Assembly (NCBI GenBank): GCA_045614625.1
Contig: JAZLDE010000106.1
Location: 1 to 54,949 of the forward strand
Direction: 5' to 3'
Source of the DNA: Eubacteriales bacterium
GTDB taxonomy: Bacteria > Bacillota > Clostridia > Oscillospirales > CAG-272
Length of the DNA stretch: 54,949 nt
The translations under genes and the position numbers were made by a program. Under the pieces are notes generated by a model. That model made no database searches. It worked only from the letters and a program-made list of their open reading frames with translations, and had not been told where the DNA came from. Positions 1,736 to 43,885 of this stretch are shown in pieces; positions within the stretch are counted from its first letter, which is position 1, and each line of letters starts with the position of its first letter.

Positions 1736-1772
1736 AGTAATCTCCTTATTTGGGATTTTTGCTGGATTTTTC

Positions 1773-2397
1773 AGCAACTACTTCTACGGACGCTCACACT
1801 GCACTTCGTGCGCGCTCGCGGTTTGTACTTTATGCCACTTCTTGGCACGCCCCAAGAAGTGGCGGAAGAAGGGCGCCAAGACGTTCCCTCTTGGATCTCC
1901 CTTATCTGTGCCGCTCTTCAAAGAGGGTTTGGGAGAACATATTTCGGCTTGCGCCGAAACGAGGCGAGTTTTATTCGCCCGTTAAACACGGGCGTTGCGC
2001 AGAAGCGCAAGCATAAAACTCCAAGACATAGCGTTTTTAAATGCTTTGCTCGCCATATAGCCACCACGAGCGGCAGATATGGAAAGCAAAAGTTGTTGCT
2101 TTCTTGTAGGGACGGGCGTCCTCGACCGTCCGAAAAAAGCAATTCTAACTTTGTGGAGCGTAATGGGTAGGGGAACGGAGTAAATCTGCGGAGCAGATTT
2201 ATGCCGAGCGTAAGCGAGGAGAGGGCCCCATGAGCTCGCGGGAGCTATTGCTTGGGCAGAGGCACGCCCTTCCCCACACGGACTTAGGAGAATTCTTCCC
2301 GTCCGTGCTCCTGTTTCTTTTCGGGAAAGTTCTTGGGGGGTGCGGGGGACTTCTTTCAAGAAGTCCCCCGCGCGTCCTCTCGTCCTCTCGTCCCCTC
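1773..2397. repeat. mosaic hairpin-rich intergenic repeat, locus A (between aroF and pheA)
   Basis: It shares blocks with loci B-E: head CTTCTACGGACGCTCACACTG at 1781, perfect hairpin 1834-1863, CCAAGACGTTCCCTCTTGGATCTCCC at 1876, GCCACCACGAGCGGCAG at 2060, GTAGGGACGGGCGTCC hairpin at 2106-2139, and hairpin GCGGGGGACTTCTTTCAAGAAGTCCCCCGC at 2341-2370. The track ORFs here are frame-broken between copies. Confidence 0.8.
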
Positions 2398-3504: not shown

Positions 3505-4419
3505 TCAGCCGTTTTTATCAAACGCGCGGCGACGTTCGGTAGACAGGCGCATCATCTCGCGCATGGTCTCGCTGTCGCCCTTGGCCAGCGCGTCTCGCAT
3601 GGCACCAAATCGGTCGATGAAGGTGTCCATTTGATCAAGCAACGCATCGCGGTTGGACAAAAACAACTCGCTCCACATGACGTCGTTGATCTTGGCAATT
3701 CGGGTCAGATCGCGGAAGGAATCGCCCGTCAGTCTTGCCAGTCGGGCAAGACCGTCCGCCTCGTCCTCGCCACCGTCCGCACAGCACATCAGCGACACGG
3801 CAATGGCGTGGGTCAGCTGGGACAAATAGGCAATCATGCGATCGTGCTCCTCCACCGACAGCCGCGTGACACGGGCAAAGCCTAAAATGCGGCCGAGCTG
3901 CTCACAAAGAGCAATGGCCTCGGGCGTGTTTTTGTCGGTGGGAACGACCAGATAGTTGGCACCGCGGAACATATCGGGGGTGGCGGCGCGGTAAACGTCC
4001 AGCTTGCTGTTGCCAACCAGCTCGCGGCCTGCCATGGGGTGCGCCGAAATATACTCAACACCTCCCGGCAGCATAGCCTGCACCTGCTCAACCACGCAAC
4101 CCTTGACACCCGTGACGTCGGTCAGCACCGTGCCGGGGGTGATGAGGTGGCCGTGCTCGGCGATCCACTCGACCAATACGGCAGGGTACAAGCCAAAGAC
4201 GATGATGTCCGCCTGCGCGATCAGTGCGGCGTCGACCTGCGTGCTTCCCGCGGCGATCACACCGTCTTCAAGCGCGGCGTCGATGACCTCCTGCGAACGA
4301 GTGATACCAAACACGCGATAGCCCGTTTCGGACAGCGCGCGGGCGTATGCGGCACCGATCAAGCCCATGCCCACGATGAGCACGGTGCGATCGGGAATTA
4401 AATAGGGAAATTGTTTCAT
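3505..4419 (-). CDS. tyrA: prephenate dehydrogenase
   Basis: It has an N-terminal Rossmann motif VLIVGMGLIGAAYARAL and ISAHPMAGRE, with the overall layout of the TyrA family. RBS AAAAGGAGA precedes ATG 4419. Confidence 0.85.
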   Translation of the reverse strand: MKQFPYLIPDRTVLIVGMGLIGAAYARALSETGYRVFGITRSQEVIDAALEDGVIAAGSTQVDAALIAQADIIVFGLYPAVLVEWIAEHGHLITPGTVLTDVTGVKGCVVEQVQAMLPGGVEYISAHPMAGRELVGNSKLDVYRAATPDMFRGANYLVVPTDKNTPEAIALCEQLGRILGFARVTRLSVEEHDRMIAYLSQLTHAIAVSLMCCADGGEDEADGLARLARLTGDSFRDLTRIAKINDVMWSELFLSNRDALLDQMDTFIDRFGAMRDALAKGDSETMREMMRLSTERRRAFDKNG

Positions 4420-4445
4420 TTGACCATCTCCTTTTTTGCTTTAGT

Positions 4446-4480
4446 AAAAAAAGGCGGTCTTGCAATTGCAAAACCGCCTT
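4446..4480 (-). terminator. intrinsic terminator between the leader ORF and tyrA (attenuator candidate)
   Basis: The minus strand reads AAGGCGGTTTTGCAATTGCAAGACCGCCTTTTTTT. The stem is GGCGGT-TTGC / GCAA-ACCGCC with loop AATT and a T7 run. It ends about 25 nt before the tyrA RBS. Confidence 0.75.
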
Positions 4481-4525
4481 GATAAGCGTTTGATTTTCGA
4501 TGCCAATATCTGCACCGTTCCATCT

Positions 4526-4726
4526 TTATGCTGCAATTGCTTGTTTTCGTTGTCTTCTCAGATAATAAAAGGTAAAGCTATAAAAATAAAATGCAAAAAA
4601 GGATACCGCAAAGGCAGTATCCGAGTCGGCAGAGGTAGCGCGAGACAGGGCGGAGCGAGGGCATACGGACAAAGCCGAGGACATCGGCTGCTGTGCGCTG
4701 TTTCGTTCGTTCATGGCCTGCATCAT
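4526..4726 (-). CDS. putative Phe/Tyr-rich leader peptide (66 aa)
   Basis: RBS AAAAGGAGATACC precedes the ATG. The C-terminal part FAVSFFAFYFYSFTFYY has 7 Phe and 4 Tyr in 17 codons (4562-4612). It lies directly upstream of the terminator and the aromatic amino-acid genes. Confidence 0.55.
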   Translation of the reverse strand: MMQAMNERNSAQQPMSSALSVCPRSALSRATSADSDTAFAVSFFAFYFYSFTFYYLRRQRKQAIAA

Positions 4727-4776
4727 GGTATCTCCTTTTTGGAAGAATATTCATATCATTCTCCCAAGATAGCATT

Positions 4777-4805
4777 AGTATACACGATTTGTTTTCAAAT
4801 TTCAA
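4777..4805 (-). promoter_or_regulatory. sigma-70-type promoter for the leader/tyrA unit
   Basis: The minus strand reads TTGAAA (4800-4805), a 17-nt spacer, then TATACT (4777-4782), about 40 nt upstream of the leader RBS. Confidence 0.55.
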
Positions 4806-4854
4806 GGGCTATTGCAAAAAAAGTTGTGTTTTTTCAAATTTATTCGCCGTCAGC

Positions 4855-4899
4855 CAAAAAAAGCAACCGCGCAAAAGCCCTCTTGCCCTGCGCGGTTGC
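4855..4899 (-). terminator. intrinsic terminator of the surface-protein gene
   Basis: The minus strand has stem GCAACCGCGC...GCGCGGTTGC (10 bp) followed by TTTTTTT. Confidence 0.7.
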
Positions 4900-4912
4900 G
4901 ATTTATATTGCG

Positions 4913-6331
4913 TTATTTTTTCTTTTTACGAACCATCCATCCTGCCGCGGCGATGAGCGCCAGCATCGCAGGCGCGCCGCTGAAAAGAACGGCAAAGCAG
5001 CCATCGTCGCTCGGCGCTACGGGCACCGCAGGCGTTTGCGGCGTTTCTGGCTCGGTTGGATCATCCGTTTCCGGTGGAGGTGGATCAGAGATGATAAATA
5101 CACGATCTTCTGCCTCTTCTAAAATGGCGAGATACCCGTATTCACTCAGCACCTCTTTTTCAAGTCTCATCATACCGTCAACCGTCTCTCTGGCCGCAGT
5201 AGTAATATCGCAAGCCCTTTGCCAATTCTCCCAGGTCCAGTTGGACTCTTGCAAGAAATCCTTCAGCCAAAGCAGATCAGAAATCAAGCTCTCGTTTTCT
5301 TTCAGAATGTAATTGATTTCCTCGCAGTCAGCAATCACATTTTTGACGTTCGTAAACAACTTGTAGTAACCATTCGCTTTTAGCATAGATTGTTCATCCG
5401 CCGACAAAGCGTTCCACTCTGTCATGAGAGCATCATACTGCGCCTTTACAGCATCAAGATCAAACTCCTGCGCGGAGGTATCCTCACACACAAGGCTCAG
5501 CTGCTCGATCTTTCCAATCAGCTCGGCGTATTTTCCGCGCTCGGAAAGAGGCGCACATTCTTGTTTGCAAGCATAGCAGGTAAACGGCTCGTCAAACACG
5601 TAGGGCGGATGGGAATACTCCGAATGAAACGTCTCGTCGAGCTTCTTGTCACATTCGGTACAATATCTCCAGTGCTTATTCTCATCGTACTGCCACTCGC
5701 CCGGCGTGTGGGGATCAAAGGCGACCTGGCGGTCGGTCAGAACGAAATTGTCGAATTTCAAGACCCAATCCTGCCCGCAGTCGGTCTCATAGTCCCAATA
5801 AATTTGCAAAAAGTTGATATCGGAAACGTCAAAATTGCTGTCCAGCACTATCATGTCTTCAAGAAATATAACAACGTGATTCCAGCCTGCTCGGGGGCAT
5901 CCCTTGCGGATATCATAAAGAATATTTTTCCAGTCGTATCCTATTTTAGCCGGCAGCGTTTTCGGTCCTGACCCAATTTCCAAACGGCCGTAAGAAATGT
6001 TTTTCAGATCATCCAGCATGGCAAGATCCGAAATATACATTTCAAATTCCAACGCAAGCACACCCGTGGCATCCACTGCATCAAAATTGCGATAGCCCAG
6101 CACTAAGTTTGTTTTGCCGTTGAGATTGATACTGACGCATCCCTCGCCCTCTACTTGGTTTTCACGGTCTACTACAAAGCCGCCTGGATTCGTCCAATTC
6201 TCATCCGCATTCCACAGAGGAACGACCTTTGTGGGTTGCGCGGGCACGTGATCTGCCCCCGCAGGCACAAGGAGGCTCAAGAGAAGCACCGCGGTCATCA
6301 AAATAGAAGCTAATACTCGTTTCATTTTCAT
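4913..6331 (-). CDS. secreted/cell-surface protein of unknown function with a C-terminal TM anchor
   Basis: ORF 4913..6385; the start is probably MKMKRVLASILMTAVLLLSLLVPAGA (signal peptide) at 6331 or 6325, after AAAGGAGAGA. It contains a Cys-rich block (HWRYCTECDKK...FTCYACKQEC) and a Pro/Thr/Glu linker. The C-terminus is a hydrophobic helix plus RKKKK, with no LPXTG motif. Confidence 0.7.
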   Translation of the reverse strand: MKMKRVLASILMTAVLLLSLLVPAGADHVPAQPTKVVPLWNADENWTNPGGFVVDRENQVEGEGCVSINLNGKTNLVLGYRNFDAVDATGVLALEFEMYISDLAMLDDLKNISYGRLEIGSGPKTLPAKIGYDWKNILYDIRKGCPRAGWNHVVIFLEDMIVLDSNFDVSDINFLQIYWDYETDCGQDWVLKFDNFVLTDRQVAFDPHTPGEWQYDENKHWRYCTECDKKLDETFHSEYSHPPYVFDEPFTCYACKQECAPLSERGKYAELIGKIEQLSLVCEDTSAQEFDLDAVKAQYDALMTEWNALSADEQSMLKANGYYKLFTNVKNVIADCEEINYILKENESLISDLLWLKDFLQESNWTWENWQRACDITTAARETVDGMMRLEKEVLSEYGYLAILEEAEDRVFIISDPPPPETDDPTEPETPQTPAVPVAPSDDGCFAVLFSGAPAMLALIAAAGWMVRKKKK

Positions 6332-6559: not shown

Positions 6560-9550
6560 TCAAGCGTCAAAGGCGGCGGTCAATTCCCGTGCCAGCGTCT
6601 GCATGCGCTCCTCGTCCACTTTGACGACGCGGCGGTCGTAGGTGACCATGCCGTTGACCTCGTCCTCAACGTCGCTGACCTGGGTGAGTACAAGGGCGCA
6701 CAGATTGGTCGTGCGAAGGGCGGGGACGATCTGCTCGCGATACAAGTTCTCCAGCCCCTCGGTCAGCGCCTCGGCACTTTCAAAATTGCGGTAGCCAAAG
6801 CTGTGGTCGGGATTGAACAGATGATCCTTTTCCGCGTAGCAGTAGCCGCCGAACTCGGACAGCACGACGGGGCGCTCGGGGTTCGTCTTCAGCTTAACGG
6901 GGCGGAAATAGATGTGCTCACTTTGCACGTCGCTGTCCTTTTCAAAGAACCAGCCCGACGTCGCATCCCACACGCGCGAAGGGTCGAGGGCTTTCAGCTC
7001 GCTATAGATGCGGTCGGCGTCGTACTGCCCCCAGCCCTCGTTGAAAATGGTGTAATAACACACGCAGGGGTGGTTGTAAAGCAGATCGACCGTTTCGCGC
7101 GCCGCGCTCTCAAAGGCGGCACGGCGACGGGGGCTTGCCTTATGGGAAATTCCCTTTTTGAAGCCGATCGTAGGCAGCGCCGTATCGATCACAAAACTGT
7201 ATTTGCCGCTGTTGACCATGTCTTGAAAGACGACCATGCCAAGTCGGTCACATTCATAGTAGAAAATCTCGGGCTCGATCTTGATGTGTTTGCGCAGCAT
7301 ATTAAAGCCCAGCGACTTCATGGTTTGAATGTCGTGGCGGTATCCCTCGGGCGAGGCGGGCAGATAGATGCCGTCGGCAAAATAGCCTTGGTCAAGAAGA
7401 CCGTGGAACAGCATGGGGCTCCCGTTAAGCCCTATGACGGGGCCGTTTTTGCCCTCGCCGATATCGACCGTACGCAGAGCAAAATAGGATCTCACCTCGT
7501 CCTCGCCGGCGCGCAACGTAAAGCGGTAGAGATAAGGATCGTCGGGCGTCCAGAGGTGAACGTCGTCTGGCGTGAGGGTGAAGGTGTCGCCCTCAAAATC
7601 ATATGTCTTGTCGCCGCTCTCGGCGTGCAGGATCATCGTCTTGCGCACCTCGCCGCCCGTGATCGTCAGCGTCGCGCTCGTCAGCGTCGTGTCGATGCGG
7701 ATGCGCTCGATGTGCACCTTCGGCACGGCCTCCATCCACACTGTCTGCCAGATGCCGCCGGTCGGGGTGTACCACATGCCGCCCCGCTTCTCTCTTTGCT
7801 TACCATATGGCAATTCCTCATCCAAAGGGTCGCTCACCGCGACAGTGATCTCGTTCTCGCCCTCGCACCACGCGTCGGTTACGTCCAGCGCGAAGGGATG
7901 GTAGCCACCCTCGTGCTCGCCCACCCGCCGACCGTTCACAGACACGGTACAAATCTGATCAACTGCACCGAAATGCAGGATCAGTCGATCCTTTGCAAAG
8001 CCCTCGGGCAGAGTGAGGGTGCGGCGATAGATCAAAACGTCGTTCTTTTCAAAGGTCTGTCCGATACCGGAAAGACGCGACTGGGGTACGAAGGGCACCT
8101 TAATCGTGCCGACCCGATGCTCTTCCCCCGCGCGAATGACGGACAGCGACCAATCGCCGTTGAGGCAGAGATACGAGTCGCGCTTCATTCCGGGGCGGGG
8201 ATACTCCTGCCACGGGGTGTCGCCCATGTCCTCCTCAAACGGGGTGGTCAAATTCTGCAGACGGGGCTTCTTCTTGCCCTTCATCCAAAGAAGGAGCAGG
8301 AAAATGGGCAGAGCGACGATCAGCGCCGCAACAAAGATCGACGCGTTGGGCACGAAGGAGGTCGTGCCGTCGTTGTTGGTGATCAGCTCGGCATCGGCCA
8401 GCACGGTCTTGCCGATGAAGGGGCCGACAAGACCCGGAATGAGCACCTGCGAGAAGATGCGCACGCCCTGCAGCATGCCCGCCTTGCCCGCGGGAGTATA
8501 GTCGCGGATAAGCGCACCGAACACAGCCATGCCCGAAAGATAGCCGCACATCATCAGCAGCGAGCCGACGAACACCAATACCGTACTCCGGAACAGCAGG
8601 AGCAGCACGTAGCCTAAGCACAGCCAGATCAGCGCAGGAATGGCCGACTTCATAAAGCCCTTTTTGTCGTACACCTTGCCCCAGAAGAAGGTGACCACGG
8701 CGGCCAGCACGATGGCAGGCGCCATGATAAAGACGTAGTTGCTCATGCCCAACGACACCTCGTAGTAAAGAATGAGGTAGGGCATGAAGATCTGAATGGA
8801 AATGTTGAAAACGATAAAAATGAGCAACGCACGGTACAGCGGCGCGTTTTTCTTGACGGTCGATGGACGGAAGCCGTAGAAAATGTTATAGAGATAGCCC
8901 GTTTCGCTGGGAGTGATCGGAGCGTCCTTGATGATAAAGCAGCCAAGAACACCAACGCCCAGCGTCAGTGCGCCGATGATGGCGAAAATGTAGGTCCAGC
9001 TGGTCGACTCGTTCAGATCAAAAGCCATAAAGCCGCCAAATACCGCGAGGATCGCCACCAGCGGCATCATGGCGTTGATGCCCTCGGCGGCACCGCGACA
9101 GGACTCGTCGGTTGAGTCGGTCAGCCAGGCGTTAAAGGCAGCATCGTTGGCGGTCGAGCCAAAAAAGGTCATGACGCAGTCCATGAGAATGACCAGCGAC
9201 ACGCCCACCGTGGCGGCGCTGACGGTCATGGGAACAATGGCCTCAATGACGTCGAGACGAATAAAGACGAAGCTGAAAATGGAAATGCCCCACAAAATGT
9301 AGCCGCCGCACATAAACAGCTTTCGCTTACCCACGCGGTCGGAGAGAGCGCCCATAAAGACGGTCGTCAAGGTAGCCGCGACGGCGCTGGCCATGACCAT
9401 GGCGGAGATATCACTCGGCGTGGCGTTGAACATTTTGTAGATAAAGACGTTGAAGTACATGTTCTCGACGACCCAGGCGATCTGGCCCATGAGGCTAAAG
9501 ACAGTCAGAGCGACGAGGAAGCGGGGGGAGAGCGTACGTTTTTGTTTCAT
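6560..9550 (-). CDS. fusion protein: N-terminal 12-TM MFS/GPH-type sugar transporter plus C-terminal glycoside hydrolase family 2
   Basis: Residues 1 to about 440 contain about 12 hydrophobic helices by eye, plus a GALSDRVGKRK loop. From about residue 455 there is a GH2 sugar-binding domain (LHFGAVDQICTVSVNGRRVGEHEGGYHPFALDVTD) and a TIM barrel (FNMLRKHIKIEPEIFYYECDRLGMVVFQDM) with acid/base FNEGWGQ and nucleophile VLSEFGGY. RBS GAGGAGA. Confidence 0.8.
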   Translation of the reverse strand: MKQKRTLSPRFLVALTVFSLMGQIAWVVENMYFNVFIYKMFNATPSDISAMVMASAVAATLTTVFMGALSDRVGKRKLFMCGGYILWGISIFSFVFIRLDVIEAIVPMTVSAATVGVSLVILMDCVMTFFGSTANDAAFNAWLTDSTDESCRGAAEGINAMMPLVAILAVFGGFMAFDLNESTSWTYIFAIIGALTLGVGVLGCFIIKDAPITPSETGYLYNIFYGFRPSTVKKNAPLYRALLIFIVFNISIQIFMPYLILYYEVSLGMSNYVFIMAPAIVLAAVVTFFWGKVYDKKGFMKSAIPALIWLCLGYVLLLLFRSTVLVFVGSLLMMCGYLSGMAVFGALIRDYTPAGKAGMLQGVRIFSQVLIPGLVGPFIGKTVLADAELITNNDGTTSFVPNASIFVAALIVALPIFLLLLWMKGKKKPRLQNLTTPFEEDMGDTPWQEYPRPGMKRDSYLCLNGDWSLSVIRAGEEHRVGTIKVPFVPQSRLSGIGQTFEKNDVLIYRRTLTLPEGFAKDRLILHFGAVDQICTVSVNGRRVGEHEGGYHPFALDVTDAWCEGENEITVAVSDPLDEELPYGKQREKRGGMWYTPTGGIWQTVWMEAVPKVHIERIRIDTTLTSATLTITGGEVRKTMILHAESGDKTYDFEGDTFTLTPDDVHLWTPDDPYLYRFTLRAGEDEVRSYFALRTVDIGEGKNGPVIGLNGSPMLFHGLLDQGYFADGIYLPASPEGYRHDIQTMKSLGFNMLRKHIKIEPEIFYYECDRLGMVVFQDMVNSGKYSFVIDTALPTIGFKKGISHKASPRRRAAFESAARETVDLLYNHPCVCYYTIFNEGWGQYDADRIYSELKALDPSRVWDATSGWFFEKDSDVQSEHIYFRPVKLKTNPERPVVLSEFGGYCYAEKDHLFNPDHSFGYRNFESAEALTEGLENLYREQIVPALRTTNLCALVLTQVSDVEDEVNGMVTYDRRVVKVDEERMQTLARELTAAFDA

Positions 9551-9599
9551 GATGGTCTCCTCGGTATGATTTTCTGCTTTTATTATACCGCGTGGAGGG

Positions 9600-10745
9600 A
9601 GGTTTGTAAAGGGGGAGAGGGGGGATTGGCTGAAATTTCAAGCTCCTTCTCCTTTTGACGCTCATACTGCGTGACTGCGTCACGCGCTGAGCTGTTCCGG
9701 TTTTCAATGCCGCTTCTTGGCACGCCCCAAGAAGCGGCGGAAGAAACGCGCCAAGACGTTCCCTCTTGGATCTCCCCTTTCGTGCCGCTCTTCAAAGAGA
9801 ACAGCGGAGAAAGACATCTACGCTCTTTCTACATCTCTCGCCACGCAGCCACCACGAGCGGCAGGCGAAGAAAGCAAAAGGCCTTGCGGGGTGCCAAGGG
9901 GTATTAGACCCCTTGGTTCGGTTCTTGGCTACTTCTTGGGGAATGCCAAGAAGTAGCATAAAATACTATCACCGAGCGCCCATTTCGCCAAGGCGAAATA
10001 CAGAAGTTTTGTTCGTCCGCTAAGCGCGGGCGTCATGCAAGCATGAACACAAAACTTCGCGCGCAGCAGGGCGAGGCTGTAGGAGAAGTCTTTGACTTTT
10101 CAAACTGCTTCTCCTTTTGACGCTCATACTGCGTGACTGCGTCACGCGCTGAGCTGTTTGATTTTGATGTTCATTCTTTGGCACGCGCCAAAGAATGAAC
10201 CAAGAAAGCGCGCCAAGGGGTCTAATACCCCTTGGATTCCCGCAATGCGAAAAGGTCGTTACGCTGTCGCTCCACTCATCTTTTCGCAAAAGATAGCATC
10301 TTCAGCGTTTGTGTTTGCAAGTTAAAGAAACTTGCAAACACGAAAGGCGCACGCAAGTGAAATAGCAAAAGCTTTTACTGTTTGTTACGCAACCTATGAA
10401 AACTAAATTTTATACAAAAACGATTTTGCCTCCTCTACCCGCCGCTCGTGGTAGCTATGTGACGAGAGTTGCAGAAAACGTTCTGATGTCTTTCTCGTCC
10501 TGCTTTTTGAAGAGCGACACGGAAAGGGAGGCTCGGAGGGAACGTCCGAGCTGGCAATGTTTGCGCCCGCGCGAAGCGCGATGTTCGCGTTCAGCGAACA
10601 AGCAAACTTGCGATTTCGGCTTGCCGAAATCTGTTTTCTTTCGTCCTTTCTTTGTTCAGCGACAAAGAAAGGACATATAATACCTGCACAGCGCACGCGC
10701 AAAACTGTGTGCGCGTCCGTAGAAGCAGTTGTAAAAAACAAAGCT
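9600..10745. repeat. mosaic hairpin-rich intergenic repeat, locus B (three elements: two direct, one inverted)
   Basis: The three elements are B1 at about 9640-10090, B2 at about 10100-10400 and B3 at about 10400-10740 (inverted). Heads lie at 9646 and 10108, with a reverse-complement head at 10711-10725. Perfect hairpins lie at 9709-9738, 9928-9957, 10169-10200 and 10643-10674. See findings. Confidence 0.85.
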
Positions 10746-10790
10746 AGCCCCCTCCCCCACAAAAAAAGGACGCCTCCGCGCCCTTTTTTA

Positions 10791-17689: not shown

Positions 17690-17850
17690 GGACTCTCCTT
17701 TTTTTGTGAACCGACGTTCACATTGATCTGCCTTTAGTATACCACAAAACCACCCCAATGTCAATCCGTCGTAGGGAAGGGGCTTGCTCCTCCCGCTTTT
17801 TTGGGATCTCGCCTGTGCCTCGTAGGGACCGGCGTCCCCGACGGTCCGCT

Positions 17851-21707: not shown

Positions 21708-21885
21708 CTCTCTACCGCCTTTCCGCCATTTGAGGTTTGCGTCAAATGTATTATAGCATACTTTAGGGCGGATTGCAATATTTTTGCGCCACCCGGACGG
21801 CGGCAAGCCGCCTATCGGTACGTCCGATTCCGCACAATGTGTCCAAAACAAAAATGGTCACGCTGTTGCGTGGGCATTTTTATTT

Positions 21886-21905
21886 TGGAGGCGCCACCCG
21901 GAATC
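21886..21905 (-). pseudogene. 20-nt duplicate of the tRNA-Cys 3' end
   Basis: TGGAGGCGCCACCCGGAATC is identical to 22033-22052. The sequence that follows is unrelated (hairpin CTCACAGTGCCACCGGCACTGTGAG). Confidence 0.7.
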
Positions 21906-21995
21906 TCACAGTGCCACCGGCACTGTGAGTGTTGCGCCCCGGATTCTGCCGCCGCAGGCGGCAGAGCCCGATCCGATGTAGGGTGAGTGAGGCCA

Positions 21996-22031
21996 AAAAG
22001 AAAAACCAGTCCATCGGACTGGTTTTTCTTT
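21996..22031 (-). terminator. terminator after tRNA-Cys
   Basis: AAAAAGAAAAACCAGTCCATCGGACTGGTTTTTCTTTTT forms a long perfect stem flanked by A and T runs. Confidence 0.75.
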
Positions 22032-22032
22032 T

Positions 22033-22106
22033 TGGAGGCGCCACCCGGAATCGGACCGGGGATAGAGGTGTTGCAGACCTTTGCCTTACCGCTTGGCTAT
22101 GGCGCC
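22033..22106 (-). tRNA. tRNA-Cys (GCA)
   Basis: The minus strand reads GGCGCCATAGCCAAGCGGTAAGGCAAAGGTCTGCAACACCTCTATCCCCGGTCCGATTCCGGGTGGCGCCTCCA. It folds as a cloverleaf with anticodon loop CTGCAAC and an encoded CCA. Confidence 0.9.
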
Positions 22107-22123
22107 TTATTTAGAACAGAAGT

Positions 22124-22152
22124 ATTATACCACGCAAAGTCTCTTTTGTCAA
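22124..22152 (-). promoter_or_regulatory. consensus promoter of tRNA-Cys
   Basis: The minus strand reads TTGACA (22147-22152), a 17-nt spacer, then TATAAT (22124-22129), with TGG before the -10 box. Confidence 0.7.
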
Positions 22153-22229
22153 TGCTTTTTACAAAATTCTTTTTTCTTTTGCTGAAAGGTCGCTTCGTTA
22201 TCATTTTATGCGGTGAGTTGTGAAAGGTG

Positions 22230-22566
22230 AAAGATTGTGTAGATGCCGCTTCGCGGCATGGGGCAAAAAAGAACAGCAAAACCCTTAGTTGCGAGGGCTC
22301 GATAGGTTTGCCGCTGACGCGTCAAACCACGAGATTGCTTTTGCGGCTTGCGCCGAAAAAGCAATCTCTGACCCGCCCGCGCTTCGCGCGGATCGGGTCC
22401 GTATGCCCCGTAATCTGCGAGCGAGATGCCGCTTCGCGGCATGGGGCTCGAACCCAAAACTCGTCTCGCGAGACGAGTTTACAAAGAATATCTCGCGGGC
22501 TGGATACCCGCGCCTTGCGTGGCAAGGACGATATTCTTTCAGGCGGTTCTCGCCCCGTAAGACGCG
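22230..22566 (-). repeat. hairpin-rich spacer with a tRNA-Asp T-arm fragment, internal duplications and a three-way-junction module
   Basis: GATGCCGCTTCGCGGCATGGGGC occurs twice (22242 and 22424). ATGGGGCTCGAACCCA at 22441-22456 matches the tRNA-Asp T-arm. AAAAAAGAACAGCA occurs at 22265 and 22567. The three-way-junction module is at 22483-22539. Confidence 0.7.
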
Positions 22567-22605
22567 AAAAAAGAACAGCAGACCGATTGGTCTGCTGTTC
22601 TTTTT
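22567..22605 (-). terminator. terminator after tRNA-Gly
   Basis: AAAAAAGAACAGCAGACCGATTGGTCTGCTGTTCTTTTTT. Confidence 0.75.
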
Positions 22606-22681
22606 TGGAGCGGATTACGGGGCTCGAACCCGCCACCTTCGCCTTGGCAAGGCGACGCTCTACCAAATGAGCTAAATCCGC
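22606..22681 (-). tRNA. tRNA-Gly (GCC)
   Basis: The minus strand reads GCGGATTTAGCTCATTTGGTAGAGCGTCGCCTTGCCAAGGCGAAGGTGGCGGGTTCGAGCCCCGTAATCCGCTCCA, with anticodon loop TTGCCAA. Confidence 0.9.
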
Positions 22682-22687
22682 ATATAA

Positions 22688-22763
22688 TGGTGCCTCCGGT
22701 CGGAATCGAACCAACGACACGGGGATTTTCAGTCCCCTGCTCTACCAACTGAGCTACAGAGGC
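22688..22763 (-). tRNA. tRNA-Phe (GAA)
   Basis: The minus strand reads GCCTCTGTAGCTCAGTTGGTAGAGCAGGGGACTGAAAATCCCCGTGTCGTTGGTTCGATTCCGACCGGAGGCACCA. Confidence 0.9.
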
Positions 22764-22790
22764 ATCAGGGGAGTGATGGCTGTAAAAAAG

Positions 22791-22867
22791 TGGCGACCCG
22801 GATGGGGCTCGAACCCACGACCTCTAGCGTGACAGGCTAGCGCTCTAACCAACTGAGCTACCAGGCC
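22791..22867 (-). tRNA. tRNA-Asp (GTC)
   Basis: The minus strand reads GGCCTGGTAGCTCAGTTGGTTAGAGCGCTAGCCTGTCACGCTAGAGGTCGTGGGTTCGAGCCCCATCCGGGTCGCCA. Confidence 0.9.
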
Positions 22868-22887
22868 ATCTTTTTCACAACGGGGAT

Positions 22888-22916
22888 ATTATAGCATACG
22901 AAGGCATAATTGTCAA
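22888..22916 (-). promoter_or_regulatory. consensus promoter of the tRNA-Asp/Phe/Gly cluster
   Basis: The minus strand reads TTGACA (22911-22916), a 17-nt spacer, then TATAAT (22888-22893). Confidence 0.7.
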
Positions 22917-23046
22917 GTCTTTTTTTCGCTTTTTCAAAAAAATTTCGCTTTTCGCTCGCCTTAAACAATTAATAATCAAAACACCCCTTTTCTTTTTATC
23001 ATTTTTGTGGTAAGATATATATACTTCAAGATTGCGAGGTGTTTTT

Positions 23047-25758: not shown

Positions 25759-25786
25759 AGGGAGCTTCTTTGGAAGCTCCCTTTTT
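25759..25786 (+). terminator. intrinsic terminator of the two-component operon
   Basis: AGGGAGCTTCTTTGGAAGCTCCCTTTTT. Confidence 0.75.
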
Positions 25787-25789
25787 GTT

Positions 25790-26200
25790 TGGCTGAACTT
25801 CAAACCACTTCTCCTTTTGACGCTCACCCTGTGCCTGCGGCAGCCTTTGGAAACTGCTCTTGTGCCGCGCTTCAAAGCAGGCTGAGGAGAAAGACATCTT
25901 TGATTTAATGTATCTCTCGCTGCTTTGCCACCACGCGCGGCAGACGAAGATAACAACAGAGTTTTGCTTGATTTCCCCTCTTGAGCGTGCGCTTATGCGC
26001 CAAGAGGGAGGATTTTGGCAAAACAAAAAGCCCCGGCGGCTCTTGAAAAGCCGTCGGGAGGTAGGGGGTTCCAAGGGGGAACGCCTTGGTGTCCTTTCTT
26101 CGCCTATTCTTTGCGACAAGGCAAAGAATAGGCATACAGAGCACACCGAGCGCGCCTCAGCTCGACAGAGTCGAGGTGGGCTGGGCGAGACTGTAGAAAC
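25790..26200. repeat. mosaic hairpin-rich intergenic repeat, locus C
   Basis: Head CTTCTCCTTTTGACGCTCACC at 25808, GCCACCACGCGCGGCAG at 25927, and perfect hairpin 26102-26133 (its stem is identical to that of 43700-43731). Confidence 0.75.
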
Positions 26201-26233
26201 TATCACAAAAAACTCAGAGATTTCTCTCTCCGC

Positions 26234-27502: not shown

Positions 27503-27680
27503 CCTTTGCTATCTTTTCCCATCCGGACTATACTCGCTCGCATCCGCGCGGGATTGCAGGCTTGCGAATTCGGCCCCGCCGAATTCTACCGTCGGTTCGG
27601 GAATTTCACCCGATCGGCTCCGTTTGTGGAGTTCGCAGACTATCACTGCCGGTATGGAATTTCACCAATTCCCAAAGTTA
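27503..27680 (-). promoter_or_regulatory. FMN (RFN) riboswitch
   Basis: The minus strand reads GGGAATTGGTGAAATTCCATACCGGCAGTGATAGTCTGCG...GAGCCGATCGGGTGAAATTCCCGAACCGACGGTAGAATTC...GTATAGTCCGGATGGGAAAAGA. The two GGTGAAATTCC arms and the closing AGTCCGGATGGGA box are RFN hallmarks. Confidence 0.85.
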
Positions 27681-27746
27681 TGTGTGACACTCCGCCGCGT
27701 GCGGCGGAGTGTCGGCAGGTCAATCGAATGACCTTGAAAATTAATT

Positions 27747-29270
27747 TTATTCTTGCTGGTTTTCCAGCATTTTTTCGAAGGCCTCCGTCACCTTATTAAC
27801 GCGGTCCTCCGCGCCGGGGAGTGCCTTCTGGTAGTAAGACGCATAGTCGCTGTTCGGCTGATTGCCGGTCAGCAGATCGCGCATGGTGTCGGTCCACCAT
27901 CTGTTTCCGCCGTAGACGTAGGCGAAGTCAAGGATCATGCTCTGACGGATCAGGTCAACCATCTCCTTGGACACTGCATCCTTGGTATAGCGGTTCTTGA
28001 GTGCGACTTCAAAGTAGGCAGGAGTAACCTGACGGTAGCCCTCCGCGCTCATGGATTCCATGATCGTACCTACGTAATCGGGATCGGAACAAGTGTGGGG
28101 AATCACAAAGTAACGGTCGGTATAGCCGGCGTAATACTCTTCCTGCGACTCATCCAGCTTGGGATAAGGCACAATACCGTAGTCTACATCATAGTCCAAG
28201 AAGACCTGAACGGCACTACCGATATGGACCGGAATGTAGACCGCCTGGTTCTGGCCAAACATTGCCTGTGCCGAGGGACGGGTGATAACGTAGCCACCGT
28301 CACTTTCCCACAGAATGTTGTACATTTTCTCTACCAGATCGTACATACGCTCGTCATGACCATTGAGAACCAGTTCGCCGGTATCAGCGTCCTTTTGAAC
28401 CAGCTCAATGCCAAACGATTCCGGCCAGCAATACAGCTGAGAAGGAATGACAATACCGAAAATATCGTCCTCGGTCTTGCCCTCGATACCCATGTCGCCT
28501 TCCTCGTGGAAGTCCTCAATCGAGGTGAACATATCCTCCAGATACCATTCGCCGCTCTGCACCTGCTCGTATGGCAGATCCATGCCGTAATCCTCCATCA
28601 ACGACTTGTTGAAGAAGACCGAGCTGGTGGAGATCAGACCACGGTAGGAGATAGAGGAGGACATCAGATACATCTGTCCCATAAACGAGAGCGACTCCAT
28701 ATTTTTCTGAGGCCACCAGGGCTTAGAAAAATCGAACTGCTCGATCTTATTCAGATCATACAGCACGCCCTCCAGCGACAAGTTGGCGCCGTGGACGTCG
28801 TGCGTGCGGGCTACGTCAAAATCGGTGAGGCCGGCGCCGATCTGGTTCTTAATGTATGTAACGTGCTCACCCTCCGAGCCCGTGCCGGAGTGAAGGGCCA
28901 CAATGTCAACGCCAAAGCGCTCCTCCGTCGAGGAAATTGCGCTGAACACGGCATTGTCAATGACGCCGCCCGTGCCTTCATCCACCCAGAAGTCATTCAA
29001 ATACTGCTCGAGAAAATACAGAATGGTAAACGTCGTTCCATAATTCTCGGACTCGGGAAGGTTATCCTCCACGTCGTAAATGTCGGGCTGCTGAGGCTCT
29101 TTCCCTTCCTCTTCCTTCTCGTCTCCACCGTCCTGAACCGGAGGCTTTTCATCCGGCTTGACAGGCTCGGAAGGCGTTTCGGGCTGATGGCAAGCAGCGA
29201 GCAACGAAACCACCAGGCACAGCGCCAGCAGAAGAAATACAACTCGCTTAAAAGTGTTTCGCATTTTCAT
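27747..29270 (-). CDS. ABC-type extracellular solute-binding lipoprotein (family 1, sugar/oligosaccharide type), copy 1
   Basis: Lipobox LLAAC after the signal peptide, a Pro/Glu/Lys linker, and a large SBP body. It is a paralogue of the next gene. Confidence 0.8.
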   Translation of the reverse strand: MKMRNTFKRVVFLLLALCLVVSLLAACHQPETPSEPVKPDEKPPVQDGGDEKEEEGKEPQQPDIYDVEDNLPESENYGTTFTILYFLEQYLNDFWVDEGTGGVIDNAVFSAISSTEERFGVDIVALHSGTGSEGEHVTYIKNQIGAGLTDFDVARTHDVHGANLSLEGVLYDLNKIEQFDFSKPWWPQKNMESLSFMGQMYLMSSSISYRGLISTSSVFFNKSLMEDYGMDLPYEQVQSGEWYLEDMFTSIEDFHEEGDMGIEGKTEDDIFGIVIPSQLYCWPESFGIELVQKDADTGELVLNGHDERMYDLVEKMYNILWESDGGYVITRPSAQAMFGQNQAVYIPVHIGSAVQVFLDYDVDYGIVPYPKLDESQEEYYAGYTDRYFVIPHTCSDPDYVGTIMESMSAEGYRQVTPAYFEVALKNRYTKDAVSKEMVDLIRQSMILDFAYVYGGNRWWTDTMRDLLTGNQPNSDYASYYQKALPGAEDRVNKVTEAFEKMLENQQE

Positions 29271-29362: not shown

Positions 29363-30901
29363 TTACTGATCTTTCTTTGCCAGCATTTCTTCAAATGCAG
29401 AAGTTACCTTGTCAACACGTGCCTCTGCCTCGGGAAGCATCGACTGGTAGTAAGAAGCATAGTCCTTGCTTGCATCCTTATCCTTACCGCTGAGCAGGTG
29501 GTACAGCGAACGGCTCCACCACTTGTCTGCGCCGTAAACGTAAGCAAAGTCAAGGATCATGCTCTGCTTGATCAGGTCAACCATTTCCTTGGACGTCTGG
29601 TCCTTGGTATAACGGTTCTTGAGTGCAACCTCAAAGTAAGCAGGCGTTACCTGACGGTAACCCTCAGCACTCATGGACTCCAGAATGGTGCCCACGTACG
29701 CGGGATCCGAGCAGGTATTGGGAATGACGAAATAACGATCGGTATAACCGGCATAGTACTGATCCTGAGACTCATCCAGCTTGGGATAAGGAACGATACC
29801 GTACTCGATATCATAATTCAGGAAGTTAGCAACGGCAGCACCAAGGTCAACGGGAATGTAGACCGCGCGGCCCTCACCGAAAATAACCTTAGCGTCTTCT
29901 CTCGGAATCATATATCCGCCGAAGTTTTCCCAGCAAACGCTGTACATTTCGTCAAACAGCGTGATCAGGCGCTCATCGTCACCATTGAGAATGAGCTCGC
30001 CCGTTTCTTCATCCTTCTGAACCAGTTCGATGCCAAAAGACTCCTGCCAAGCGTACAGCTGGTAAGGAACAACGATGCCAAAGATGTCGTCAGGGCTCTT
30101 GCCTTCGTAACCGTCATCGCCCTCTTCCCAGAAGTCCTCGATGGAAGCGAACATATCACTCAGATACCAATCGCCGCTCTTAACAGCCTCATAAGGCTCC
30201 TCGATGCCATAATCCTCCATCATCGTCTTATTGAAGAAAACGGAGCTGGTCGAAGACAGACCCTGATACGAAATAGACGAAGAGATCAGGTACATCTGAC
30301 CCATGAAGGTCAGAGACTTCATGGTATTCGCAGGCCACCAGGGCTTGGAGAAGTCCAGGTTGGGAATTTCGTACAGATCCATGAGCGCGCCTTCCAGAGA
30401 AAGGTTGGCGCCCTGAACGTCGTGTCCACGAGCCATTTCAAAGTCGGGCTTACCGCCGGCGATCTGGTTTCTGATCTGCGAAATGTGGTCGATCTCACTA
30501 CCGGCAGAAGACTTGATAGCAACGATATCAACGCCAAAGCGCTCCTCGGTTCTGGAAATTGCATCGTAAACAGCGTTGTCAATGACACCGCCGGTACGGT
30601 CGTCAACCCAGAAGTTAACAGCCAGCTTTTCCTGGAAGTACAGGATGTTGAAGGTCGTGCCATAGTCAGCAGACTCGGGCAGACTATCCGCTACGTCGTA
30701 AATATCGGGCATTTCGGGATCGGGCGTAGTGCCGGGATTTTCGGGGTTATTGGGCTTTTCAGGATCCGTAGTAGTATCATCAGGCGTCGGATTAGGATCC
30801 GGCTCAGGCGGATTACATGCCGTGAAAGCAGGAATCATCATGCACAGTGCCAAAACGAGAACGAGAAAACGGACAAGATTCGTATGTACTGTCTTTTTCA
30901 T
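29363..30901 (-). CDS. ABC-type extracellular solute-binding lipoprotein, copy 2
   Basis: Lipobox AFTAC. It is collinear with copy 1, sharing for example YGTTF.ILYF, GANLSLEG, SKPWWP, FMGQMYL.SSSISY, YAGYTDRYFVIP.TCSDP.YVGTI.ESMSAEGYRQVTPAYFEVALKNRYTKD. Confidence 0.8.
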   Translation of the reverse strand: MKKTVHTNLVRFLVLVLALCMMIPAFTACNPPEPDPNPTPDDTTTDPEKPNNPENPGTTPDPEMPDIYDVADSLPESADYGTTFNILYFQEKLAVNFWVDDRTGGVIDNAVYDAISRTEERFGVDIVAIKSSAGSEIDHISQIRNQIAGGKPDFEMARGHDVQGANLSLEGALMDLYEIPNLDFSKPWWPANTMKSLTFMGQMYLISSSISYQGLSSTSSVFFNKTMMEDYGIEEPYEAVKSGDWYLSDMFASIEDFWEEGDDGYEGKSPDDIFGIVVPYQLYAWQESFGIELVQKDEETGELILNGDDERLITLFDEMYSVCWENFGGYMIPREDAKVIFGEGRAVYIPVDLGAAVANFLNYDIEYGIVPYPKLDESQDQYYAGYTDRYFVIPNTCSDPAYVGTILESMSAEGYRQVTPAYFEVALKNRYTKDQTSKEMVDLIKQSMILDFAYVYGADKWWSRSLYHLLSGKDKDASKDYASYYQSMLPEAEARVDKVTSAFEEMLAKKDQ

Positions 30902-35789: not shown

Positions 35790-36235
35790 TAAAGTTCCTG
35801 CTGTTTCTTCTTTTGACGATCATACTGCCTTGCGCGTTAAAAAGAATAATTGTAACGGTTTCGCTGAACGCTGTGCAACTTCTCCTTGGGCCTCGCACAG
35901 CTTCGCGCGCTCGGTGTGCGGCCTTGGTGTTACTTCTTGTCTCGTGACAAGAAGTAACCAAGAAACACGCCAAGACGTTCCCTCTTGGATCTCCCTGCGA
36001 TTGCCGCTCTTCAAGGCAAATCAAGAGATAGACATAACCGTCTTTTGTGTCGTGCTTCAAGGTAGCCACCACGAGCGGCAGATATGGGAAGCGAAAAGTC
36101 TTGCGGGGTTCCAAGGGGTATTAGGCCCCTTGGTTCGTTTCTTGGCTACTTCTTGGGGAATACCAAGAAGTAGCATAAAATGCTTTTACCGAGCGCGCGA
36201 AGCTGGGCGAGGCTGTAGGAGAAGAAGCAAAAATT
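35790..36235. repeat. mosaic hairpin-rich intergenic repeat, locus D
   Basis: Head at 35807, perfect hairpins at 35929-35958 and 36145-36174, CCAAGACGTTCCCTCTTGG at 35970, and GCCACCACGAGCGGCAG at 36065. A 37-nt long-range inverted repeat pairs 35879-35915 with 36188-36224. Confidence 0.85.
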
Positions 36236-36249
36236 TCAGTTGCCTTTTT

Positions 36250-36560
36250 TCGTAGGGCTTCTCATTCCCCTACAGTGCCAAAACGAAAAGGCAATCACTT
36301 TCGTGATTGTTTCCTATGGCAATATTCCGTTTCCTACAGAAACGGAATATTGGGTGCGGCGTAACGGATCTACAAAATCAATACCTATTTCAAACGCCGC
36401 GTGGATTCGAACCCAGACCTCACGTCGCACGCGCCGTGAGCTCCAAAAGAATCCCTCGCGGGCTCAACACCCGCGCCTTGCAAGCAAGGACGGGATTCTT
36501 TCGTAGGGGTTCTCATTCCCCTGCTGGACCAAAACAAAAAGGCAATCACTTTCGTGATTG
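36250..36560 (-). repeat. 251-nt-period direct duplication containing a decayed tRNA-Arg 3' half and a three-way-junction module
   Basis: A roughly 60-nt direct repeat TCGTAGGG.TTCTCATTCCCCT...AAAAGGCAATCACTTTCGTGATTG occurs at 36250-36309 and 36501-60. The tRNA-like piece is at 36351-36440 (TGGGTGCGGCGTAACGGATC, GTGGATTCGAACCCAGACC). A 14-bp hairpin is at 36318-36353, and the module is at 36445-36502. Confidence 0.7.
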
Positions 36561-36705: not shown

Positions 36706-36795
36706 GTGGTTTTTGAAAAATTTTTATTTTTTCTTCAAAATAGCGGTTTTGAGAGTGTGGGGGAGCTTCTTTTTAGAAGTTCCCCCACGCGTTTT

Positions 36796-42628: not shown

Positions 42629-42789
42629 AGGATTGCCTCTTTCTTTTTTTGTTGATTTTTTCGCATCGCACAGATGCGGTTGCAGCTGAAAACATTATAT
42701 CATATTTATATATAGTGTGGTTGAACTTTTTTTAGATATTTACAAATAAGATACAACTTGTGCAGGATGAACAAAAAGCGGGACAGCTG

Positions 42790-43800
42790 TATTTTTTGCA
42801 ACTACTCCTTGGGCCTCGCCCAGCTGCGCGCGCTCGGTGTACCGGCGTTTTGTGTTACTTCTTGCCGCGCGGCAAGAAGTAACCAAGAAACGCGCCCGGA
42901 CGTTCCCTCCGGGCCCTCCCTGCGATTGCCGCGCTACATAGAGCAACAAGAGAGATCACATATTACACTTAAATGCTGTGCTTCAAGTGTTGCCACCACG
43001 CGCGGCAGGCGAAGAAAGCGAGAGTGTTTTTGTTTAAATTTAGTTGGGCTGGGGTGCGTTGCAGATGGCAAAAGCTTTTGCCGTTTTGCTTACGTGCGAC
43101 TTCCGTGTTTGCTGCAATGTTTGCGCCCGCGCTTGCGCGATGTTCGCGTTTAGCGAACAAGCAAACTTGCGATTTCGGCTTGCCGAAATCTATTTTCTTT
43201 AACTTGCAAACGCAAAAGCTGAAGATGTAAACCTTCGCGCAAACATGAGCGGAGTGACAACGCAGCGACGTTTGCGCGTTGCGGGTATCCAAAGGGCATT
43301 AGGCCCTTTGGTTCCTTTTCTTTCGCCATTTCTTTGTGGAACGACAAAGAAATGGCATTCGTGCCGTACAGCGCGGCGCGTCAGCTGTACGCGCGTCCGT
43401 AAGAGAAGTCGTGGAATTTTTGGTTTTTCTCATCTCCTCCGCCTTGCAACCACGCGCGGCAGGCGAAGGAAGCAAAAGCATTTTTGTAAAAAAGTTAGTT
43501 GAACCGGGGTGCGTCGCAGATGGCAAAAACTTTTGCTGTGTCGCTTGCGTGCGACTTTTGTGTTTGCAAGTTTATTTAACTTGCAAACGCAAAGGCTGAA
43601 GATGCATCTTTTCGCGAAAAAATGAGTGGAGCGATAGCGAAACGACTTTTCGCGCTCGGGGGTCCCAAGGGGTATTAGACCCCTTGGTGCCTTTTCTTCG
43701 CCTATTCTTTGCGGCAAGGCAAAGAATAGGCACAAATCCGTACAGCGCACGCGCGGAGCTGTGTGCGCGTAAAGAGAAGAAGTCGTTTAAAAGCCAGCTA
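42790..43800. repeat. mosaic hairpin-rich intergenic repeat, locus E (about 1 kb, including a tandem pair of units)
   Basis: Left arm at 42802-42838 and perfect hairpins at 42854-42883, 43325-43356 and 43700-43731. Tandem units run 42992-43447 and 43448-43800. The 77-nt block at 43114-43190 is about 95% identical to 10554-10631. Confidence 0.85.
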
Positions 43801-43885
43801 TCTCTCACACAAAAAGAGATCCCCCGATGTTCATCGGGGGACCCCTGCCCTTGCGGGCTTATTCATCTTTTGCTTGTTCCGTCAA

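Follow-up and report, generated by a model that had tools for sequence, protein, structure and literature searches.

The bacterial interspersed mosaic elements (BIMEs) of Enterobacteria, built from repetitive extragenic palindromes (REPs), are extragenic, multicopy repeats in which inverted palindromic units surround conserved linker motifs. Their copy number varies from locus to locus, they form tandem arrays, they lie between a terminator and the next gene or between cistrons, they are transcribed passively, and their stems carry compensatory changes. Miniature inverted-repeat transposable elements (MITEs) and foldback elements, including Correia of Neisseria and bcr1 of Bacillus cereus, are short, noncoding, and intergenic; they have terminal inverted repeats, differ in presence and absence among strains, are frequently cotranscribed, and are expected to influence neighboring genes. 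BOX elements of Streptococcus pneumoniae, composed of boxA-boxB(n)-boxC (PMC3049150), are a modular repeat of the Firmicutes type with fixed outer modules, a variable middle, predicted stable stem-loops, an intergenic location, and no transposase of their own. Palindrome-associated transposable elements (PATEs) derived from IS200/IS605, together with omega-RNA scaffolds, have folded single-strand hairpins near their ends, make no target duplication, show an orientation bias related to replication or transcription, and carry a structured RNA with a pseudoknot at one end. Each of these features has a counterpart in the repeats described here, which occupy a 54,949-nucleotide contig (JAZLDE010000106.1, assembly GCA_045614625.1; the window, meaning the whole stretch analyzed) of an uncultured Eubacteriales bacterium. 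An initial annotation, made from the sequence alone, had placed them in the neighborhood of BIME, REP, and MITE elements. Our analysis agrees with that placement, and no named RNA family matches them. On balance, we think it slightly more probable than not that they are a new BIME/MITE-like family of interspersed repeats whose turnover is driven by recombination and which is often cotranscribed with its neighbors.

The similarities on which the family rests are far above chance when computed by self-blastn and by motif counts in shuffled sequence. Five main regions are mutually and significantly similar in self-blastn (1758–2100, 9626–10768, 25789–26134, 35874–36242, and 42784–43818), as the annotation had proposed. 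Positions 9713–9979 match 35933–36196 at 78.5% identity (E=4e-55), 10093–10455 match the reverse complement of 43446–43796 at 76% (E=8e-64), and 10554–10641 match 43114–43200 at 94.3% over 88 nt. The 17-mer core GCCACCACGMGCGGCAG, allowing up to two mismatches, occurs seven times (at 2060, 9848, 25927, 36065, 42992, and 43446 on the forward strand and reversed at 10439–10455), versus 0.06 expected, and was seen in none of 100 shuffles. The head, the CCAAGACGTTCCC hairpin, and the GTTTGCAAGTT blocks lie at the positions given before. In all, the window holds seven copies at five sites, full copies measuring 361–683 nt, and the description of an extragenic, hairpin-rich, multicopy family holds. 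Its extent had been overestimated: in place of 8–9% of the window (4.5–5 kb), BLAST coverage is 3363 nt (6.1%), rising to ∼3.7 kb (6.8%) when the G/C-rich element tips and a module termed X are included. The idea that the repeats fill almost every long gap is right for five of about seven gaps longer than 400 nt and wrong for 4419–4913 and the tRNA cluster at 21851–23032. The shorter pieces thought to be related (17765–17850, 22230–22566, 36250–36560, 53600–53665, and 54470–54900) have no module-profile match even at E≤10. Open reading frames (ORFs) within the repeats have a third-position GC of 0.46–0.56, versus 0.60–0.77 in genes, and no Pfam match; these nongenic codon statistics and the lack of a match rule out a protein-coding nature.

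Behind the mosaic appearance lies a single plan. Modules were cut from one short and one long copy, and iterated nhmmer profiles were mapped on the window and on the other loci described below. The blocks had been read as occurring in different orders and orientations, with no one fixed element, but the module maps give one canonical order in every copy, held in the seven window copies and in all 50 module-carrying loci from elsewhere: G-rich tip, END, arm H1-H2, M3, M4 core, an optional part, arm H3-H4, END reversed, and C-rich tip. The optional part after M4 is M7-M9, an alternative of ∼105 nt, or nothing. The G-rich tip is GGGGGAGG-like, and END has the consensus GCTAAATTTyaAACAACTTCTCC followed by a GC-rich hairpin. 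Arm H3-H4 is an inverted copy of the H1-H2 arm type. The element can be described as two inverted ∼130-nt arm units, each consisting of a G-rich tip, an END with its own hairpin, a 12–13-bp polypyrimidine/polypurine hairpin, and a short hairpin, placed around an asymmetric center in which the core GCCACCACGMGCGGCAG closes an 8-bp helix. Twenty full copies have terminal inverted repeats in the form of an END module at each end, the two being inverted relative to each other. A sub-module of 82–87 nt, M8, consists of a three-way junction and a palindrome and is found in several insertion places and in both orientations. Module X gives 29 nhmmer matches across the window and the other loci, with the recurring order END-H12-M3-M4-X. 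The apparent mosaic has four sources, namely elements abutting in either orientation, inverted arms, truncated copies, and inserted M8, and there is no free shuffling.

The evidence that this plan corresponds to a fold comes from compensatory change. A full element folds far better than shuffled sequences on both strands (z = −7.1 and −5.7). In an ordinary MAFFT alignment (A1) of 60 arm copies, from which the covariation counts derive, 94% of 1256 cells are paired, with 344 double changes versus 110 in shuffles and a covariation score of 0.67 versus at most 0.14 when the pairing is slid. The 12-bp stem of H1 is 97.9% paired, with nine covarying pairs, and the short arm hairpin is 92% paired. 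Compensatory change is seen at 14 of the 24 pairs of M8, and the center is closed by the helix TGCCGCKC/GMGCGGCA, whose K and M positions covary. The hairpin loops CGTTCCC and CTAAT are conserved, and TTCTT/AAGAA form invariant blocks within stems. A stem closing the whole element was considered and rejected, the ENDs of one element being no more complementary to each other than to those of other elements (0.60 versus 0.62).

A 4-bp pairing, newly noticed here, joins four bases of the H1 loop to four bases just past the purine linker GAA(A)GAAA, which is itself invariant; in the arm at 10167–10236, for instance, loop bases 10184–10187 (CGCG) pair with 10209–10212 (CGCG). This loop-linker helix is paired in 98.3% of 232 cells, versus 57% in shuffles and 24–46% when slid, and its covariation score is 1.05, versus at most 0.23. 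Thirteen different complementary tetramer pairs occur. Topologically, the predicted pairing is that of an H-type pseudoknot. The 5′ arm of H1 is pyrimidine-rich (TTTCTTT), its 3′ arm and the linker share a mirror-symmetric purine word (AAAGAAA or AAGAA), and the type of linker tracks the type of arm, making a mirror repeat. From this we infer that the arm could be compatible with a triple helix.

Whether the folded strand is RNA or DNA was approached through mismatches. G·U pairs are nearly absent (2 of 1198 cells over 21 well-supported pairs). At the level of whole elements, G·T and A·C mismatches are equal on the element strands (15 versus 16), and folding energy is alike on both strands and favors neither; together these argue against one-strand RNA selection at that level, which we reject. 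When arms are oriented alike, the raw count becomes 26 A·C versus 1 G·T, an asymmetry that falls to approximately four independent genuine events once spurious hairpins are removed and the abundant subfamily is counted once. In the commonest hairpin subfamily (14 arms), A·C becomes G·U on the outward-reading strand. This hints, though weakly, at folding of each arm on the strand that reads outward. The pairing shows that a single-strand fold is held to strict Watson-Crick complementarity, by selection or by a copying process, and it leaves RNA and single-stranded DNA undistinguished.

The repeats are not confined to the window, as an assembly artifact would be. A 28-nt degenerate pattern of the core matched 22 loci in five species-level metagenome-assembled genomes (MAGs), comprising RGIG5545 (Clostridia, sheep colon), SIG644 and SIG664 (Oscillospiraceae), and two Eubacteriales MAGs, as well as eight contigs of one metagenome assembly; viral contigs gave no match to the core motif. 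Exact-protein look-ups retrieved strain-level contigs of the window's own organism from several metagenomes, and two such look-ups returned no match. At the DNA level, genes of the window are ∼72% identical to those of the MAG loci, and RGIG5545 and SIG644 are ∼85–87% identical; the family therefore spans several species or genera. The annotation had failed to match the repeats to any named repeat or noncoding RNA class, and no Rfam match falls inside them on either strand at the gathering score or at E≤1, the only matches in the window at those thresholds being tRNAs and a flavin mononucleotide (FMN) riboswitch. ROOL, GOLLD, OLE, raiA, HEARO, group I and II introns, and ribozymes (Rfam 15) were excluded by the lack of any covariance-model match. 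Blastn against PLSDB plasmids and INPHARED phages gave no match, and the searchable literature, queried by topic and by motif string, held nothing relevant. The family is previously undescribed and belongs to a clade of uncultured ruminant and gut Oscillospiraceae-like Clostridia.

The seven window copies vary the plan as follows. E1 (1762–2100, forward strand) has END, H1-H2 (1832–1895), M3, a reversed M8-like insert (1934–2020), and the M4 core (2060–2092); it is without a standard right arm and continues into module X, an alternative right arm of ∼210 nt (2178–2389, forward strand) with an END-like TAGGAGAA, the hairpin GGGGGACTTCTTTCAAGAAGTCCCCC (2342–2371), and a C/T-rich tip. E1 sits in the aroG-pheA spacer: 16 nt separate its left END from the ATG (1746) of the prephenate dehydratase gene (pheA), and the module X tip adjoins the stop codon (2398) of the DAHP synthase gene. 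E2, a short form (9600–10095, forward strand), runs through G-rich tip (9600–9625), END (9634–9689), H1-H2 (9707–9770), M3 (9780–9842), M4 core (9848–9880), H3-H4 (9888–9958), reversed M8 (9981–10057), and END reversed (10058–10095). Its neighbor E3, a long form (10098–10760, reverse strand), includes M9, M7, M4 (10418–10455), and M3, has M8 (10556–10638) in the purine linker of an arm, and has a C-rich tip (10746–10760) that adjoins the terminator of a helix-turn-helix gene (10762–10789). E4 (25792–26218, forward strand), between convergent genes, has lost its left arm and retains END, M3, M4 (25927–25964), the ∼105-nt alternative insert, H3-H4 (26065–26135), and END reversed. A solitary END (35792–35833, forward strand) lies upstream of E5, a complete short form (35863–36240, forward strand; END, H1-H2, M3, M4 at 36065–36101, H3-H4, END reversed) upstream of the AT-rich rpsL promoter region. 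Ea (42786–43416, forward strand) is a complete long form with END, H1-H2, M3, M4 (42992–43029), M7, M8 (43116–43197), M9, H3-H4, and END reversed. It is followed by Eb (43417–43810, forward strand), which has no left arm, its C-rich tip being joined straight to M4 (43447–43483) and then M7, M9, H3-H4, and END reversed, and which adjoins the terminator (43815–43846) of a gene for a 2183-residue leucine-rich repeat (LRR) protein.

The setting of these copies is ordinary chromosome, with aromatic amino acid genes, an rpsL-rpsG-fusA-tuf operon, tRNAs, the FMN riboswitch with ribU, a two-component system, a MoxR-DUF58-TgpA operon, the LRR/MucBP surface protein of 2183 residues, and a P-type ATPase. 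The elements are strictly intergenic and typically extend from just past the T-run of a terminator to just ahead of the next promoter or ribosome-binding site. An element tip adjoins a canonical terminator at 10746–10789, 25760–25792, and 43798–43846, and a near-consensus promoter (TTTACA-17-TATAAT) lies at 9582–9610, just outside E2. Twelve ENDs (10 left and 2 right) are ∼22 nt from a ribosome-binding site and start codon (GAAAGGA-N7-ATG). Elements that reach to a ribosome-binding site must be cotranscribed with their neighbors if they have no promoter of their own, and no σ70-like promoter was detected inside the elements. Hairpins resembling terminators exceed expectation (6 versus 2.0 and 10 versus 3.1 expected). 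Between codirectional genes, the core is antisense, on the noncoding strand, 22 times versus 5 sense, or ∼14 versus 3 when counted by hand per intergenic region. This bias could also reflect the direction of replication because the cumulative GC skew of the window and the strand of its genes run the same way.

Copies of M3+M4 have a mean identity of 64% within a genome and 61% between genomes, and the nearest neighbor of a copy is often in another species. The family is old and diverse, with shared subfamilies and no recent burst. Three species whose flanking genes are 78–79% identical, and likewise the RGIG5545/SIG644 pair, carry elements at orthologous intergenic sites, where internal modules have been exchanged. 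An apparently empty orthologous site on the MoxR side in two contigs (L008 and L011) was a false lead; the MoxR there is a 50%-identical paralogue without a DUF58 or TgpA neighbor. Comparison with contigs 97–99% identical to the window shows the family changing among strains. Positions 10091–10710 (E3) are absent from four contigs (L027, L030, L033, and L034), one strain is without 9920–10634 and M8, so that a single clean short element remains, L028 carries E2 without M8, and one strain has an extra element beside a promoter. Four contigs (L035–L038) keep a 78-nt H1-H2 module missing from the window at 25838–25841, and L001 has ∼260 nt of other modules in place of 42841–43450. All of the junctions of these differences lie within homologous END or hairpin modules or at microhomology, which argues for recombination rather than cut-and-paste. 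Many metagenome and MAG contigs start or stop inside an element (L004, L010, L013, L017, L026, L029–L034, and L039–L043), and the family is therefore apparently a frequent cause of assembly breaks in these organisms.

In the explanation we favor, the elements are akin in behavior to foldback MITEs or to BIMEs of unusual size. Recombination between copies, whether homologous or mediated by hairpins, would be the main way in which they persist and turn over, and any true transposition would need an enzyme encoded elsewhere in the genome that acts on folded single strands, not on duplex ends. Where the space between element and gene is too small for a promoter, the element would be transcribed together with the flanking genes, and stem-loops in such transcripts could attenuate or stabilize them, which would explain the roughly 3:1 orientation bias. 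A number of results weigh against this account. The strains compared offered no clean pair of filled and empty sites. Over 14 arrays, the longest direct match of the 30-nt flanks averages 4.8 nt, versus 4.3 nt for mismatched partners, with element tips that are not defined to the base; an 8-nt direct match flanking 42786/43798, tried as a target duplication, fits chance across 14 tests. None of the sequences covered (the window, 24 genome loci, and 28 metagenome loci; ∼0.3 Mb) contained an autonomous copy, and the genes of the window encode no transposase, integrase, or RAYT domain, which agrees with the initial annotation. The left end of an element is 60% identical to its own reverse-complemented right end, no better than between elements, so the ends do not coevolve as transposon ends usually do. 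The copies are old and divergent, and the orientation counts depend on crude ORF calls and include copies that are not independent. Finally, recognition of duplex ends leaves the pseudoknot-type covariation, the invariant purine linker, and the conserved loops unexplained. These point to selection on a folded single strand, for which a model of purely selfish DNA has no need. Strict mobility is thus only putative, no clean empty site, autonomous copy, or transposase having been found in the ∼0.3 Mb covered.

It is conceivable, if somewhat doubtful, that the ∼130-nt arm is a new single-strand fold under direct selection, a functional RNA or single-stranded DNA module and not decaying selfish DNA. 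The loop would then pair with a downstream tetramer (an upstream one on the other strand) across the mirror-repeat linker, and the pseudoknot could form a major-groove triple helix. Such an arm might serve between transcription units as a bidirectional device that marks transcript ends or blocks exonucleases, or it might be the substrate of a single-strand-specific recombinase, and the variable loop and partner tetramers could constitute a specificity code. A slightly less probable possibility, which overlaps the favored explanation rather than excluding it, is that the elements are cis-acting structured RNA domains in 3′-untranslated regions, 5′-untranslated regions, and intercistronic spacers whose fold is kept by selection, the pseudoknotted, possibly triple-helical arm on the exit side acting as a bidirectional terminator, attenuator, or exonuclease block. 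The pseudoknot-type covariation with its 13 pair types speaks for such domains, as does the mirror repeat of pyrimidine arm, purine arm, and purine linker that tracks arm type. M8 resembles an expansion segment in the loop, with pairing kept in three of five such copies in an alignment read by eye. At least 10 elements, including that in the aroG-pheA spacer (1762–2397), must lie within transcripts, given an END ∼22 nt from the ribosome-binding site, and the orientation bias, the excess of hairpins followed by a U-rich tract, the retention at orthologous sites, and the 14-arm subfamily in which A·C turns into G·U on the outward-reading strand all fit. The near absence of G·U, however, is not what RNA domains predict, nor is the lack of element-level strand asymmetry in folding energy or mismatch type, and the independent arm-level mismatch events number only about four. 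Moreover, little transcription is to be expected at three of the five window arrays, which have a canonical terminator on one side and the next promoter on the other, and elements occur in both orientations.

Placement between terminator and promoter would suit arrays of binding sites on duplex DNA, or operator-like palindromes, recognized by a nucleoid or regulatory protein and acting as topological or transcriptional insulators. BIME-2 and BIME-1, which are binding sites for gyrase and integration host factor, respectively, provide the model. Also in keeping with this are the strict Watson-Crick pairing on both strands, the invariant TTCTT/AAGAA blocks within stems, and near-perfect palindromes, some with 2-nt centers that are impossible as RNA loops (ATTTCGCCAAGGCGAAAT at 9982–9999 and GATTTCGGCTTGCCGAAATC at 10612–10631). 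This nevertheless seems unlikely because binding sites need conserved sequence, and the stems here vary freely provided that they remain paired; a loop-to-linker pairing is meaningless in a duplex, and there is no candidate protein. Least probable of all, in our estimate very improbable, are independent multicopy genes for a small or large noncoding RNA, a new ornate class comparable with ROOL, GOLLD, and OLE. The size (360–680 nt), the many covarying helices with a pseudoknot, the z scores of −7.1 and −5.7, and the host group would be appropriate, ornate RNAs having been found before in rumen and gut Clostridia. Yet no promoter-like site lies inside the elements or at their edges, there is no strand asymmetry and no Rfam match, and both orientations, head-to-head arrays, truncated copies, and an alternative right arm are found. 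A density of about one array per 10 kb is, to our knowledge, far above that of any known noncoding RNA gene family.

As BIME/MITE-like repeats, the elements have their closest analogues in behavior in BIMEs, BOX elements, and foldback MITEs, and membership in each of these classes fails. The unit here is a ∼130-nt multi-hairpin arm with pseudoknot-type pairing, in contrast to the 35-nt REP of a BIME, and the whole element is 360–680 nt with a structured asymmetric center. There is no sequence similarity to BIMEs, and the host belongs to the Gram-positive-type Clostridia. A REP architecture, as had been suggested, does not apply to the main family, which has neither 20–40-nt units nor a conserved GTAG 5′ of a palindrome; CTAC, judged by eye, is present in only roughly half of the ENDs and lies on the side of the palindrome opposite to that expected for a REP, and no RAYT domain is encoded by the window genes. 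MITEs differ in that no target-site duplication, clean empty site, or parent insertion sequence was found for the present family, whose ends are unmatched within an element, whose copies are old and divergent, and whose internal structure is far more elaborate and is kept by covariation. Relative to BOX, the sequence and module set are different, the outer modules repeat each other in inverted orientation, one structured center with optional inserts takes the place of the tandem boxB units, and the whole is much larger. PATEs of the IS200/IS605 type are without terminal inverted repeats, have asymmetric left and right ends, and insert beside a fixed tetra- or pentanucleotide, unlike our family, whose ends are inverted copies of one module type and whose flanks (a G-rich tract, a terminator, or a ribosome-binding site) show no constant tetra- or pentanucleotide. 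No TnpA or TnpB was seen, and HEARO and IS605-orfB RNAs have no Rfam match in the repeats. Membership fails, in sum, for want of a target duplication and of a parent insertion sequence in the loci covered (MITE), of a REP-sized GTAG palindrome (REP/BIME), and of a model match (Rfam). A link to Tn3 was also entertained, END sharing the 9-nt TGACGCTCA with the Tn3 inverted repeat; we judge it coincidental because the stretch is not conserved in the Tn3 family and lies 45 nt from the tip here.

The window contains other repeats. A second, smaller one consists of GTAGGG followed by a GC-rich palindrome (eight pattern matches versus 1.3 expected), at 2104–2131, 17771–17794, 17822–17849, 36500–36527, and 53609–53675 and, on the reverse strand, at 36250–36275 and 54850–54873; the two copies at 53609–53675 face each other like a REP doublet. 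This REP-like motif is separate from the main family and explains several of the shorter pieces once grouped with that family; it suggests that a RAYT-type gene may exist elsewhere in the genome. A separate repeat of ∼105 nt (22448–22551 and 36407–36514, 75% identical) lies just upstream of tRNA genes. It starts with the T-arm-like GGNTCGAACCC, nested hairpins follow, and neither ARAGORN nor Rfam called a gene at either site; it may be a vestige of a tRNA or a structured element linked to tRNAs. Its second copy is flanked by a 65-nt direct repeat (36245–36309 and 36496–36560, 89% identical). A pair of 55-nt inverted repeats (53579–53633 and 54848–54899, 84%) surrounds an ORF at 53773–54459 on the reverse strand that encodes 228 residues, with a third-position GC of 0.38, versus 0.6–0.77 in its neighbors, and no Pfam or NCBIfam match; this may be a small foreign cassette. 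Hairpins of the type GGGG(R)(R)CTTCTTT..AAGAAG(Y)(Y)CCCC lie at gene 3′ ends (2342–2371, 25760–25785, and 36758–36790) and in the module X copies of five other loci (L012, L015, L018, L019, and L021). The hairpin at 25760 has a T-run, like a normal terminator, whereas those of module X and 36758 have none on the strand of the preceding gene.

Among the genes of the window, 6560–9550 (reverse strand) encodes a 996-residue protein with an N-terminal major-facilitator transporter domain fused to a glycoside hydrolase family 2 enzyme. Directly upstream of the FMN riboswitch (27563–27682) and a ribU-like energy-coupling factor transporter gene, and on their strand, are tandem genes for paralogues of 507 and 512 residues (27747–29270 and 29363–30901, reverse strand; 72% DNA identity) without a Pfam or NCBIfam match. 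The 2183-residue surface-type protein (43886–50437, reverse strand) has eight BspA-type LRR stretches and a MucBP domain, and its gene contains internal DNA repeats at 44630–45961 that are ∼70% identical. Window proteins that have no assignment gave no NCBIfam match.

If this description of the family holds, a whole clade of uncultured rumen and gut Clostridia gives ∼6% of its DNA, and most of its long intergenic space, to one repeat. In practice, the elements break short-read assemblies, produce spurious ORF calls of 100–170 residues, and create structural variation among strains beside promoters and ribosome-binding sites. In structural terms, the loop-linker covariation predicts a pseudoknot/triplex fold in a bacterial interspersed repeat, of which we know of no described example, and the prediction is directly testable. 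In evolutionary terms, the family is old, retained at its sites, and structurally constrained, yet constantly reshuffled, a combination at odds with both a recent transposon burst and a classical regulatory RNA.

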